Virus record (IMG/VR): IMGVR_UViG_2872180393_000006
Coordinates: 1 to 19,189 of that record
Direction: 5' to 3' (one strand)
Origin: a virus
Taxonomy: Duplodnaviria > Heunggongvirae > Uroviricota > Caudoviricetes
Length of the DNA: 19,189 bases
How positions within the stretch are numbered: the stretch's first letter is position 1; every line of letters starts with the position of its first letter. Shown here in pieces: positions 7,386 to 19,189 of the stretch. The notes under the pieces are model-generated. The model was not told the DNA's origin. It made no database searches and was given only the letters and a program-made list of their open reading frames with translations. Both the position numbers and the translations under genes were made by a program.

Positions 7386-7831
7386 TTACCGGGGTCCCTG
7401 CGTGGTTGAGCCGCCGGACTCAACGCCGCCGTGAACGTGGTTTCCAAAATCAATACCCCCGATGTTCGAACCGCCGGAAAGCCTGGACTGCCCGGTAACG
7501 TTAAGCCCCTTACTGACGGCGGTATCGCCGTTCAGCGCAATTTGTGGTGAGTTAACGGTGAAGCTTTTCGGCGCATTAATCACACCCTCAGGCGCAGATA
7601 TCTCCACTTTCCAGGGAGATACAATCCGTATCTGGTTGTCATCAAATACCACAAACTGGACGGGATCACCGTTGAGCACGCCACCCAGCCAGATGGCATC
7701 AGCATAATTATGGGTACGCTTTGATCCCGGCATCGCAGCCTGACACGTGGCTTTTACCGCACTGATATCCCGATCGCAGATGGCAAGAAAACCGATATCC
7801 CCCACATGTGGCGGCATAATCACCGCATTAC
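7386..7831 (-). CDS. Baseplate spike/hub protein gpV-like, 5'-truncated by IS600
   Basis: The C-terminus ...GGIDFGNHVHGGVESGGSTTQGPR resembles the P2 gpV C-terminus (HTHKHPGDSGGTTGSPL as recalled). The ORF runs into the IS600 end at 7832, so the N-terminal ~60 residues are missing. Confidence 0.55.
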
Positions 7832-7874
7832 TGAGGTGTACTGGCAATAGCGGACACTACCATTTGTTCTTTTT

Positions 7875-8693
7875 TTAAGCAGCCATCTGATGATATTTTT
7901 CCCTGAAGGCTGCCAGGGAGATATTCCCCAGACGAGAGTGACGACGCTGACGATTGTAGAAAATCTCAATGTATTCCCGTATTACTGAGATGGCTTCATC
8001 CCGGTTATTAAAACGATAGTGGCTCAGGCTCTCATTTTTCAGCGTTCCCCAGAAGCTTTCCATCGGAGCGTTGTCGTAACAGTTACCTTTACACGACATT
8101 GATGTTTTCAGACCAAACTGCTCCTGTATGACCCGGTAATCGTATGCGCAGTACTGTGAACCTCGATCAGAGTGGTGGATTAGCCCGGCAGGTGGGCGCT
8201 GGCTCCTGAGCGCCATAAACAGGGCTTTACCTGTCAGCTCTTTTGTCATGCGCTCTCCCATGGCGTAGCCGACAATTTCGCACGTATAAACATCTTTGAT
8301 GCCAGCGAGGTACAACCATCCCTCCTGTGTGGCAACATACGTCAGGTCCGCCACCCAGACCTGATTTGGTGCTGTAGGAGCGAACGTCTGGTTCAGCAGA
8401 TTTGGCGCAACTGGCAGATTGTGGTTCGGGTTCGTAGTCGCTCTGAACTTGCGTTTCTGCTTACAGCGTAGCCTTAGCTCCTTACGAAGACGTGCCAGTC
8501 GGTCACGACCAACGATGATGCCATTCTCTGCCAGCTCCGTCTGGAGCCGCCGGGTTCCATATGTTTCGCGAGTGCGGATATGTGCCACCTTAATCTCCAG
8601 TTTTAGCCGCTCATCACTTTGTTTTCTGTCTGAGGGTTCATGCTGTACCCAGTTGTAATAACCGCTCCTGGATACACCAAATACCTGACACAT
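7875..8693 (-). CDS. IS600 OrfB (DDE catalytic domain), expressed as OrfAB by -1 frameshifting
   Basis: 272 aa with an integrase-core DDE region (VWVADLTY...HSDRGSQY...NAPMESFW), in the -1 frame relative to orfA. Confidence 0.9.
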   Translation of the reverse strand: MCQVFGVSRSGYYNWVQHEPSDRKQSDERLKLEIKVAHIRTRETYGTRRLQTELAENGIIVGRDRLARLRKELRLRCKQKRKFRATTNPNHNLPVAPNLLNQTFAPTAPNQVWVADLTYVATQEGWLYLAGIKDVYTCEIVGYAMGERMTKELTGKALFMALRSQRPPAGLIHHSDRGSQYCAYDYRVIQEQFGLKTSMSCKGNCYDNAPMESFWGTLKNESLSHYRFNNRDEAISVIREYIEIFYNRQRRHSRLGNISLAAFREKYHQMAA

Positions 8694-8728
8694 CGCTTCA
8701 ATGGGAAATTGTTGTCGCCATTGTTCGA

Positions 8729-9031
8729 TTAACGCGTATTTTTCAGCGACTCCTGTGCAAAATACGCTGTTGCTTTTTTTAATATATCTCGCTCAAGGCG
8801 AGCTTCATTTAACGCCTTACGCAGTTGCAGAATTTCAGATTCCAGTTCAGCCACCGTGCGGGAACCAGGAGTACCGAGCCCTTTTCTGGCGGCGGTAACC
8901 CATTGTCCTAAAGTGCCTTCAGGAAGGGATAATCGGGAAGCGCCTTCACTGATCGAAAGTTGATTTTCAGGAACCGTTCTGACAGCTTCGGCTTTGAACT
9001 CTTTAGAGTAACGTTGGGTTTTTCTGCTCAT
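8729..9031 (-). CDS. IS600 OrfA (HTH transposase subunit)
   Basis: 100 aa, MSRKTQRYSKEFKAEAVRTV..., ending shortly after the A7 slippery site. Confidence 0.9.
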   Translation of the reverse strand: MSRKTQRYSKEFKAEAVRTVPENQLSISEGASRLSLPEGTLGQWVTAARKGLGTPGSRTVAELESEILQLRKALNEARLERDILKKATAYFAQESLKNTR

Positions 9032-9280
9032 TATTAGCTCCTTCTGATGCCATTCTATTTCAGGAAGGAGTGTCCGTTAAACTCAGGCTACCTCACAGCC
9101 GAAACCTCCAGCGCCTCCGGCATGGGCAATGATGCCACCGTCGAACTCTCTCCAGTTGCTGGACGAAACGTTCTCGGTATCCGGGACGGAATCATCAGCG
9201 ACCAGACAGCATTGAGAATGCTTCAGGAGTACATCAGGATCCAATGCCTTGGGGGTGCCCCTATTAAGTTGTCAAGCATG

Positions 9281-16732: not shown

Positions 16733-16754
16733 GGTGTACTGGCAATAGCGGACA

Positions 16755-17591
16755 CTACCATTTGTTCTTTTTTAAAGCAGCCATCTGATGATATTTTTCC
16801 CTGAAGGCTGCCGGGGAGATATTCCCCAGACGAGAGTGACGACGCTGACGATTGTAGAAAATCTCAATGTATTCCCGTATTACTGAGATGGCTTCATCCC
16901 GGTTATTAAAACGATAGTGGCTCAGGCTCTCATTTTTCAGCGTTCCCCAGAAGCTTTCCATCGGAGCGTTGTCGTAACAGTTACCTTTACGCGACATTGA
17001 TGTTTTCAGACCAAACTGCTCCTGTATGACCCGGTAATCGTATGCGCAGTACTGTGAACCTCGATCAGAGTGGTGGATTAGCCCGGCAGGTGGGCGCTGG
17101 CTCCTGAGCGCCATAAACAGGGCTTTACCTGTCAGCTCTTTTGTCATGCGCTCTCCCATGGCGTAGCCGACAATTTCGCACGTATAAACATCTTTGATGC
17201 CAGCTAGGTACAACCATCCCTCCTGTGTGGCAACATACGTCAGGTCCGCCACCCAGACCTGATTTGGTGCTGTAGGAGCGAACGTCTGGTTCAGCAGATT
17301 TGGCGCAACTGGCAGATTGTGGTTCGGGTTCGTAGTCGCTCTGAACTTGCGTTTCTGCTTACAGCGTAGCCTTAGCTCCTTACGAAGACGTGCCAGTCGG
17401 TCACGACCAACGATGATGCCATTCTCTGCCAGCTCCGTCTGGAGCCGCCGGGTTCCATATGTTTCGCGAGTGCGGATATGTGCCACCTTAATCTCCAGTT
17501 TTAGCCGCTCATCACTTTGTTTTCTGTCTGAGGGTTCATGCTGTACCCAGTTGTAATAACCGCTCCTGGATACACCAAATACCTGACACAT
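16755..17591 (-). CDS. IS600 OrfB with a 6-codon C-terminal extension caused by loss of the native stop
   Basis: 278 aa ending ...YHQMAALKKNKW, against ...YHQMAA in copy A; TAAAAAAAG in copy A reads TTAAAAAAG here. Confidence 0.85.
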   Translation of the reverse strand: MCQVFGVSRSGYYNWVQHEPSDRKQSDERLKLEIKVAHIRTRETYGTRRLQTELAENGIIVGRDRLARLRKELRLRCKQKRKFRATTNPNHNLPVAPNLLNQTFAPTAPNQVWVADLTYVATQEGWLYLAGIKDVYTCEIVGYAMGERMTKELTGKALFMALRSQRPPAGLIHHSDRGSQYCAYDYRVIQEQFGLKTSMSRKGNCYDNAPMESFWGTLKNESLSHYRFNNRDEAISVIREYIEIFYNRQRRHSRLGNISPAAFREKYHQMAALKKNKW

Positions 17592-17626
17592 CGCTTCAAT
17601 GGGAAATTGTTGTCGCCATTGTTCGA

Positions 17627-17929
17627 TTAACGCGTATTTTTCAGCGACTCCTGTGCAAAATACGCTGTTGCTTTTTTTAATATATCTCGCTCAAGGCGAG
17701 CTTCATTTAACGCCTTACGCAGTTGCAGAATTTCAGATTCCAGTTCAGCCACCGTGCGGGAACCAGGAGTACCGAGCCCTTTTCTGGCGGCGGTAACCCA
17801 TTGTCCTAAAGTGCCTTCAGGAAGGGATAATCGGGAAGCGCCTTCACTGATCGAAAGTTGATTTTCAGGAACCGTTCTGACAGCTTCGGCTTTGAACTCT
17901 TTAGAGTAACGTTGGGTTTTTCTGCTCAT
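17627..17929 (-). CDS. IS600 OrfA
   Basis: 100-aa product identical to that of copy A. Confidence 0.9.
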   Translation of the reverse strand: MSRKTQRYSKEFKAEAVRTVPENQLSISEGASRLSLPEGTLGQWVTAARKGLGTPGSRTVAELESEILQLRKALNEARLERDILKKATAYFAQESLKNTR

Positions 17930-17993
17930 TATTAGCTCCTTCTGATGCCATTCTATTTCAGGAAGGAGTGTCCGTTAAACTCAGGCTACCTCA

Positions 17994-19189
17994 ACATTCG
18001 CATCTGGTTCATGTTTCGAGGAAAACGATGTCGGGAAACATTGAAAGGCTGGGAGATTACTAACAGTAACATTAAAAAGGCCGGGAATTTAAGAGCGTTG
18101 ATAGTTCATGAAATCAGTTCCGGTGAATTTGAGTATTTAAGACGTTTGCCCCAGTCCAGCACTGGGGCAAAAATGGTGACAACGAGGGTCATAAAAACAT
18201 TCGGGGAGCTTTGTGATATCTGGACAAAAATTAAAGAGACAGAGTTAACAACAAACACAATGAAGAAAACGAAATCACAATTAAAAACACTAAGGATAAT
18301 AATTTGTGAGAGTACCCCGATATCGCATATTCGTTATAGCGATATCTTAAACTACCGGAATGAACTGCTGCATGGAGAAACGCTTTACCTAGATAATCCA
18401 AGATCCAACAAAAAAGGAAGAACCGTGCGCACAGTTGATAACTATATCGCCCTGCTCTGTTCGTTGTTACGTTTTGCGTATCAGTCGGGATTTATATCAA
18501 CCAAACCATTTGAAGGAGTAAAAAAATTACAGCGAAACAGAATAAAGCCTGACCCGTTATCTAAAACAGAATTCAATGCATTAATGGAAAGTGAAAAAGG
18601 ACAGAGCCAAAACTTGTGGAAATTTGCCGTTTACTCCGGGCTTCGTCACGGGGAACTGGCAGCTCTGGCGTGGGAGGATGTGGATTTCGAGAAGGGAATT
18701 GTGAATGTCAGAAGAAACCTGACGATACTTGATATGTTCGGTCCCCCAAAAACAAATGCCGGGATCCGGACGGTAACATTACTGCAGCCGGCTCTTGAAG
18801 CACTGAAGGAGCAATACAAACTGACCGGGCATCATCGCAAAAGCGAAATCACTTTTTATCATCGGGAGTACGGCAGAACTGAAAAGCAAAAACTGCATTT
18901 TGTTTTCATGCCCAGGGTGTGTAACGAAAAACAGAAACCTTATTACTCGGTAAGCAGTTTGGGTGCAAGATGGAATGCAGCAGTAAAACGTGCTGGTATT
19001 CGCCGCCGTAATCCGTACCATACGCGACATACTTTTGCCTGCTGGCTGTTGACGGCAGGAGCGAACCCGGCATTTATAGCCAGCCAGATGGGGCATGAAA
19101 CTGCGCAAATGGTGTATGAAATTTACGGTATGTGGATTGATGACATGAACGACGAACAGATAGCCATGTTGAATGCGCGGTTATCGTAG
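17994..19189 (+). CDS. Lambdoid prophage tyrosine integrase (IntQ/IntR-like), 5'-truncated by IS600; reading frame open from inside the IS
   Basis: The C-terminus has the tyrosine-recombinase catalytic region (...LRHGELAAL...HTRHTFACWLLTAGANPAFIASQMGHETAQMVYEIYG...). Native sequence begins ...IRIWFMFRGKRCRETLKGW; the first in-frame native ATG is at 18011. The stop codon is the last three bases of the window. Confidence 0.8.

Follow-up and report, generated by a model that had tools for sequence, protein, structure and literature searches.

IS600 copies without target-site duplications as probable deletion and inversion breakpoints in an eroded sitABCD-linked prophage

The DNA analyzed here, a stretch of 19,189 nucleotides assigned to the Caudoviricetes (IMG/VR record IMGVR_UViG_2872180393_000006; hereafter the window), contains three copies of the insertion sequence (IS) IS600, termed A, B, and C in order of position, none of which is flanked by a target-site duplication. 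The window is 100% identical to GenBank CP026846.1 (GCA_002949495.1) over 13.9 kb, and CP119446.1 shows the same structure with 99.93% identity. Comparison with the orthologous locus of E. coli VL46, in which sitD ends at 8311, shows that base 1 of the window is the first base past the sitD stop codon, and base 19189 belongs to the stop codon of an intR-type integrase gene, with ttcA next in CP026846.1. At the same site VL46 harbors a near-intact orthologous prophage of 44,425 bp, which spans NZ_CM177010.1 2276319-2320743 and is counted from the sitD-adjacent base to the int stop codon, in the order tail fibers, baseplate, tail, head, terminase, lysis, Q/nin, replication, ydaT, cro/cI, Rha, recE, xis, and int. 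The integrase of the window shares 97 to 99.7% identity with the intR proteins of E. coli EPSSH018 and VL46, and with ttcA beside it and with ydaT and immunity genes the element belongs to the lambdoid prophages of the Rac site. The window represents all that is left of a ~44-kb, sitABCD-linked prophage with lambdoid early genes and a contractile tail, located between sitD and ttcA (the Rac site), and contains ~12.5 kb of phage DNA along with 6.7 kb of IS DNA (three IS600 copies, two ISEc20 copies, and a 30-bp stub of an IS66-family element). Its limits coincide exactly with those of the remnant, and sitABCD, an iron/manganese transporter locus, adjoins the tail-fiber end, as in VL46. From the IS content, the enteroinvasive E. 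coli (EIEC) relatives, and the absence from the E. coli collection we infer that the host genome is of Shigella type. The prophage of E. coli O121 201805972 was considered as an intermediate and set aside, as it is paralogous, ipaH3-linked, and located at another site.

A repeat search of the window returned a 1.26-kb element present three times and a 1.46-kb element present twice. All three copies of the former start with TGAGGTAGCCTG and end with CAGTACACCTCA and thus carry the 5'-TG...CA-3' termini, with imperfect terminal inverted repeats, of IS600. The copies are 99.7% identical to RefSeq loci annotated as "IS3-like element IS600 family transposase". The open reading frames (ORFs) of A and C, of 100 aa and 272/278 aa, have an orfA/orfB layout with an A7G frameshift site, in which orfA (helix-turn-helix) and orfB (DDE/rve) are joined by a -1 frameshift at the A-run, and the 385-aa product contains HTH_Tnp_1 and rve domains (Pfam). 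Sequence identity, Pfam domains, and the A7G frameshift site together identify the element as IS600, of the IS3 family. In copy B the frameshift run (11850-11858) is A8, not A7, which fuses orfA and orfB into a 385-aa ORF (11606-12763) and would give an OrfAB transposase without frameshifting. Copy B of CP119446.1 has A7, and the A8 of the window may be a strain-specific mutation or a long-read homopolymer error.

Three-way alignment of the copies and direct reading of their ends agreed with the original prediction, made from the window alone, that all three copies lack a duplication and have the flanking triplets TAC/CAG, AAG/ACC, and GTG/ACA. In IS orientation, with the flank of the left inverted repeat (IRL) given before that of the right inverted repeat (IRR), the flanks read CTG/GTA for A, AAG/ACC for B, and TGT/CAC for C. 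No flanking repeat of 3 or 4 bp was found for A, B, or C, whether the ends were shifted or, as the prediction had also stated, swapped between copies in either relative orientation. Thus, none of the three has the 3-bp duplication of a simple insertion. The IS600 ends are correctly set, because the same termini are flanked by a GTT/GTT duplication in a control copy from E. coli O121 201805972 (L005), and no repeats emerged that a correction of the ends might have revealed.

As a baseline, we analyzed all full IS600 copies (n = 45) of two Shigella-type chromosomes, S. flexneri SFBU1023 and the S. flexneri-like "E. coli" ECMA0423. A clean duplication was present in 20 of the 45 (19 of 3 bp and 1 of 4 bp), that is, in 12/26 copies of SFBU1023 and 8/19 of ECMA0423, and the remaining 25 (~55%) had none. 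A chance 3-bp match has a probability of 1/64, so that unrelated flanks are expected to differ and the 20 repeats represent real duplications. IS600 therefore does not routinely insert without one, which had been named as a way for the prediction to fail. The real signal at the window copies is the absence of an expected duplication, not the mere mismatch of their flanks. Three of three copies without a duplication would be found with a probability of ~0.17 if the copies were independent, and those of the window are linked by shared history; for Shigella-type genomes such a count is unremarkable. Because IS600 generally duplicates 3 bp, and because an ACC duplication can be reconstructed for B (see below), the absence at A, B, and C reflects later rearrangement rather than the behavior of another element. 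Two side observations concern other assemblies. ECMA0423 (CP178302.1; 4.44 Mb) shares many IS600 sites, with identical flanks, with SFBU1023 (CP182556.1) and is probably an S. flexneri-type genome carrying an E. coli name. In addition, a complete 1264-bp IS600 on a 1380-bp contig with coverage 1.3 in the assembly of Streptomyces sp. UG1 (NZ_JBNGGG010000135.1) is most likely enterobacterial contamination.

The prediction further held that every IS600 junction abuts a truncated gene, and indeed all six abut a truncated feature, one of which (B-left) is the IS66-family stub and not a gene (Table 1). To the left of A, the gpV-like spike gene lacks its 5' 232 nt, the reference position being that after 14804 of the VL46 composite, and to the right of A lies an internal fragment of the Rz lysis gene on the opposite strand (VL46 composite 32315). 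Copy B is bordered on the left by the 30-bp terminal stub and on the right by the truncated ydaT (position 6001 of reference loci L001 and L002, the latter from E. coli VL40; VL46 composite 44160). To the left of C, a 91-codon hypothetical gene is cut past codon 41 (L001 9502), and to its right the integrase gene lacks its first 40 nt (L001 14037). For each of the three copies the two flanks are non-adjacent in intact reference prophages, which bears out the view that each sits at a recombination or deletion junction.

Table 1. Features of the 19,189-nt window, in order of position
Feature	Position	Strand	Remarks
Tail-fiber module	1-3577	-	Window 1-3581 aligns with VL46 composite 8312-11996 in three blocks
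ISEc20 copy 1 (IS110 family)	3578-5032	+	Simple insertion in C-run of tail-fiber gene; flanks contiguous in VL46 (L003 11996)
Baseplate module (wedge, broken baseplate J, sheath initiator, gpV-like spike 3' part)	5033-7831	-	99.2% to VL46 composite 11996-14804
gpV-like spike gene, 3' 446 nt	7386-7831	-	GpV Apex motif
IS600 A	7832-9095	-	1264 bp; three-way alignment and direct reading; flanks TAC/CAG, no target-site duplication
Rz-type lysis gene, internal fragment	9096-9250	+	Inverted relative to prophage backbone; L004 5837-5996, Phage_lysis
ISEc20 copy 2	9251-10706	-	Simple insertion ~10 nt ahead of Rz stop codon; flanks contiguous in RMDEC465 (L004 5996/5999)
Rz gene end, DedA/VTT-domain moron (10795-11307, -), and upstream intergenic DNA	10707-11511	+	Contiguous with 9096-9250 in reference
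IS66-family terminal stub	11512-11541	+	30 bp, GTAAGCGCCCCGAGAAGTACGTAGCGTAAG; cut by IS600 B
IS600 B	11542-12806	+	1265 bp; three-way alignment and direct reading; flanks AAG/ACC, no duplication
ydaT without last 29 nt	12807-13200	-	ORF runs into IS600 B to 12760
Early/immunity region	13201-16729		cro-like and cI-like HTH genes, DUF1391, Rha, DicB, DUF1482, 41-codon hypothetical stub (16607-16729)
IS600 C	16730-17993	-	1264 bp; three-way alignment and direct reading; flanks GTG/ACA, no duplication
intR without first 13 codons	17994-19189	+	In-frame ATG at 17945 inside IS600 gives 414-aa fusion ORF

The simplest of the three cases is copy C, which replaces ~4.5 kb comprising the remainder of the hypothetical gene, recE, recT, ralR, xis, and the first 40 nt of int. 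Its flanks map to the same reference, L001, at 9502 and 14037, 4.5 kb apart, the arrangement of an IS-associated deletion. Both C junctions are identical in all related contigs that span the IS (the 41-aa stub occurs in 23 contigs of several genomes), and the C junction is therefore the oldest event. An exact-protein look-up with the 41-aa stub, which returned these 23 contigs, recovered no pre-deletion form of copy C, and look-ups for ancestral insertions with the 414-aa integrase and 146-aa YdaT ORFs that run into the IS found them only in the same small lineage. A different IS600 lies in the recE region of E. coli VL40 (L002 10249-11512), where it parts two recE fragments and is flanked by ATG/CAG without a duplication; this is a further IS600-associated deletion, in a related prophage.

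Copies A (-) and B (+) are mutually inverted and bracket an inverted segment composed of the Rz fragment, ISEc20, DedA, and the IS66 stub, the configuration of an IS-bounded inversion. Window positions 9096-9249 correspond to VL46 composite 32315 down to 32162 on the minus strand, and the modules flanking the segment are collinear with the reference. In RMDEC465 (L004), 5837-5996 and 5999-6805 match 9096-9250 and 10707-11511 of the window and form one contiguous piece. Hence, what had been taken for an orphan segment at 9096-9250 is part of Rz, contiguous with 10707-11511, split from it by the ISEc20 insertion and bracketed in inverted orientation by A and B. Because the Rz and DedA flanks are contiguous in RMDEC465, ISEc20 copy 2 is a simple insertion. 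Similarly, the DNA adjoining B on the left, which had been described as non-coding, is the 30-bp end of an IS66-family element and is identical to such an end on plasmid NZ_CP025861.1. A second copy of this end, 1053 bp long and joined to the baseplate plug gene, is present at 1986-3038 (reverse complement) of JARKNR010000001.1 (L082), and two IS66-family insertions therefore preceded the IS600 events.

Related chromosomes, recovered by exact-protein look-ups with window proteins, allowed the history of A and B to be followed further. In window orientation, the left part of JARKNR010000001.1 runs from the tail module to the plug gene (VL46 16105) and continues with the 1053-bp IS66-family piece, which opens with the same 30 nt as the window stub, and an IS600 (-). 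Next come an inverted 148-bp fragment containing the ydaT end and ydaU, IS911, inverted lysozyme and Rz genes, ISEc20, DedA, and the IS66 stub. The right part consists of an IS600 (+), the Rha region, an IS600 (-), and int.

These genomes contain the partner of the B-right junction. The intact ydaT of E. coli VL40 reads ...CGTCGGAAG-ACC-CGCCGCC (...GGAAG ACC CGCCGCC). The IRR end of window copy B borders ACCCGCCGCC, and two sister genomes, JARKNR010000001.1 and, as an independent case, CP026877.1, have ...CGTCGGAAGACC directly before the IRL end of their A-equivalent copy, giving the junction ...GGAAGACC/IRL. The B-right flank of the window and the A-equivalent IRL flank of the sister genomes thus overlap in intact ydaT by exactly 3 bp, ACC, and because the overlap is exactly 3 bp it is accounted for by a normal IS600 insertion in ydaT with an ACC duplication, followed by an IS600 x IS600 inversion. 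An exchange of duplication halves between the two copies is seen for one pair only: the ACC pair stands at the A-equivalent IRL and the B IRR in the sisters, and the other pair, ATC versus AAG, is mismatched. In the window itself the ACC partner has been deleted. The original prediction placed the partner junctions outside the window; for B-right, the junction at which this could be traced, the data do not support it, since the partner is local, lying in the same prophage at the A-equivalent copy of sister genomes, and has been deleted in the lineage of the window. A one-step inversion between A and B had been tried on the window alone and rejected, as neither exchanged pair matches there (TAC versus CTT and CAG versus GGT); the mismatch was resolved when the sister genomes showed later deletions. 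We also considered chimeric IS copies from the distribution of single-nucleotide polymorphisms (SNPs). In A the private SNPs are close to IRR and in B they are close to IRL, a pattern compatible with a crossover, and the sites are too few for significance.

Comparison of the window with JARKNR010000001.1 reveals losses on both sides. On the left of A, 2353 bp are missing from the window (IS66 DNA, the rest of plug, hub, and the spike 5' part), and on the right of A another 1996 bp (the ydaU fragment, IS911, lysozyme, and the Rz 5' part); JARKNR010000001.1 lacks window 12807-14946 to the right of B (2.14 kb). These lineage-specific losses begin precisely at IS600 termini, and PSSR01000001.1 and CP026877.1 are further variants. 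A private SNP, T at column 1004, is found in copy A of the window, CP119446.1, and JARKNR010000001.1, and in 0/42 reference copies; by this marker, copy A in the window and in JARKNR010000001.1 appears to be the same IS copy despite its different flanks.

Taken together, these data support the view, to which we assign a probability of about 0.85, that A, B, and C are deletion or inversion breakpoints within one eroded prophage, and that local insertion, inversion, and deletions explain the missing duplications. Local deletion and inversion are sufficient because all retained segments come from one prophage. In the sequence of events that we favor, IS600 would have inserted several times into the prophage in the normal way, with 3-bp duplications, which events at the IS copies would later have separated or destroyed. 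The ydaT flanks show that one IS600 entered the 3' end of this gene and duplicated ACC. Reciprocal homologous recombination with an oppositely oriented IS600 would then have flipped the intervening segment and placed the ACC halves onto different copies, and lineage-specific deletions, each from an IS600 end, followed. Homologous recombination between two IS600 copies in direct orientation may have produced these deletions, or a resident copy may have lost adjacent DNA in a transposase-associated event, and the missing partner junctions were presumably removed with the deleted DNA, not relocated.

Several points weigh against this reconstruction. Partners were recovered for neither A-left, A-right, B-left, nor the two C junctions, and the history proposed for these is read from intact prophages. 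Undoing the A x B inversion does not yield two simple insertions; the second copy is left between two different IS66-family copies, at nt 1053 of one and nt 30 of the other, and to explain it two insertions of IS66-family elements and one or more additional deletions, whichever their order, must be assumed. The SNP evidence for the identity of copy A is a single site. Relocation of the missing segments elsewhere in CP026846.1 is possible, the comparison having covered the prophage locus. Moreover, recA-type recombination and transposase-driven adjacent deletion are indistinguishable in these data.

The last point bears on the rival that survives best, in which the IS600 transposase itself made the deletions through one-ended or intramolecular events from a resident copy, and not recombination of pre-existing copies. 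We give this a substantial chance, somewhat short of even. In different lineages, deletions begin exactly where one and the same IS copy ends, at either end of A and at the right end of B, and copy A has kept SNP 1004T despite its new left flank. Recombination with a transient neighboring daughter copy would, however, give an identical product and could keep the SNP as well. IS3-family elements transpose by copy-out-paste-in, which by itself gives a new copy with a duplication. In the long-term evolution experiment (LTEE) of E. coli, IS150, also of the IS3 family, inserted and adjacent deletions of increasing extent then arose (Ngan et al. 2024, PMC11708052), which favors this rival. A bolder proposal, that IS600 drives repeated, precise one-ended adjacent deletions ("nibbling"), possibly boosted by A8-type OrfAB variants such as B, we regard as unlikely; if true, prophage erosion in this lineage would be transposase-driven rather than recombination-driven.

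In a second rival, the partners survive elsewhere in the chromosome after distant IS600 recombination, with large inversions or translocations, and the missing parts lie beside other IS600 copies. Shigella-type chromosomes carry dozens of IS600 copies, about half without a duplication, and large rearrangements caused by IS elements have been described (PMC7373316). For A-left, A-right, and C such partners are formally possible, given that the locus of the prophage was the part of CP026846.1 compared. All segments of the window are, however, from one prophage that still occupies its ancestral site and is bounded there by sitD and ttcA, the sole traceable partner is local, at copy A, and sister genomes show stepwise local loss beside the same IS copies. 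In addition, a search of 5,426 complete E. coli genomes for the junction of ydaT/ydaU DNA with IS600 (ydaU'-ACC/IS600) returned no record covering at least 80% of the query. We therefore consider distant partners rather improbable. That the missing duplications are an artefact of mis-set ends, of an IS600 that makes no duplication, or of long-read mis-assembly across repeats is barely credible, even though homopolymer indels between CP026846.1 and CP119446.1 resemble long-read errors, because the same termini give clean 3-bp duplications in the control and 19 other copies and because the junctions recur in independent assemblies (CP026846.1, CP119446.1, and PSSR01000001.1) and in draft contigs ending at the IS boundaries.

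The remaining features of the window show additional changes. The tail-fiber alignment to VL46 is interrupted twice, by a gap of 271 bp on the VL46 side and one of 195 bp on the window side. In the 5784-7373 region, the baseplate J gene is split into ORFs of 260 and 150 aa, compared with 413 aa in VL46, and the sheath-initiator gene encodes 81 aa versus 118 aa, with a C-run indel at 7238 relative to CP119446.1; these defects reflect either further pseudogenization or assembly error. ISEc20 copy 1 is 99.8% identical to elements annotated as IS110-like ISEc20. Both ISEc20 sites are C/G homopolymer runs, GGTA-C8-GCTGAG in the tail-fiber gene and CCTT-G6-TGGCGG near the Rz stop codon. The DEDD transposase of ISEc20 is frameshifted in the window (144-aa ORF; 1455/1456 bp) and intact in CP119446.1 (398 aa; 1458 bp), and among the differences between the two are an AG indel of 2 bp at ~10047 and, at 9250, an indel in a G-run.

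The junctions also create misleading gene calls. The 146-aa "YdaT" (12760-13200) is an IS fusion ORF in which 15 IS-encoded C-terminal residues replace the native 9, and in the 414-aa "integrase" (17945-19189) 16 IS-encoded residues stand in place of the native 13. Both are annotated as ordinary genes in all assemblies, and annotators should treat them as IS-fusion ORFs. The net effect of the rearrangements would be a remnant prophage that is immobilized, predicted to be unable to excise, replicate, or make particles, next to its sitABCD cargo. The sitABCD-linked prophage thus appears locked in place, with no excisionase, replication, or structural genes and with an altered integrase N terminus. 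More generally, the locus provides a worked example in which missing IS duplications can reveal past inversion and stepwise deletion, and in which sister genomes can restore a lost partner junction; the reconstructed ACC duplication, the inversion, the IS66 stub, and the fusion gene calls are by-products of the analysis.

The prophage occupies the same site as the Rac prophage of E. coli K-12, between ttcA and uspF/ompN, and shares with it an intR-type integrase and the early genes ydaT, kil/DicB-like, and recE/recT, with recE/recT present in the intact relatives. In contrast to Rac, it has a contractile tail, a gpV-like spike, and sitABCD linkage, and it is far more eroded, with 12.5 kb of ~44 kb left. 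As in classical recombination between inverted IS copies, an inverted IS600 pair surrounds an inverted segment, and the ACC halves lie at an inner and an outer junction. The window system differs in that the reciprocal flank pair is mismatched: the second copy either already marked a deletion junction within IS66-family DNA or came to do so afterwards. In E. coli of the LTEE, IS150 first inserts, and the adjacent deletions then extend stepwise, with no duplication left behind (Ngan et al. 2024, PMC11708052). The window likewise shows a resident IS3-family copy, loss of the flank exactly from its end, no duplication, and stepwise growth of the loss; it differs in that the element is IS600, sister genomes stand in for the time series, and a two-copy inversion is superimposed. 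Finally, genome and prophage decay in Shigella and EIEC stems from expansion of IS1, IS2, IS4, IS600, and IS911, and in Shigella it is typified by deletions and rearrangements that homologous IS copies mediate (Hawkey et al. 2020, PMC7373316). The process at this locus is thus already known in kind, as ordinary, well-documented IS-driven genome degradation: many IS600 copies, interrupted genes, deletions between homologous copies, and lineage-specific differences at one locus are common to both. Nothing differs in kind, and what the window adds is a duplication partner recovered from sister genomes.

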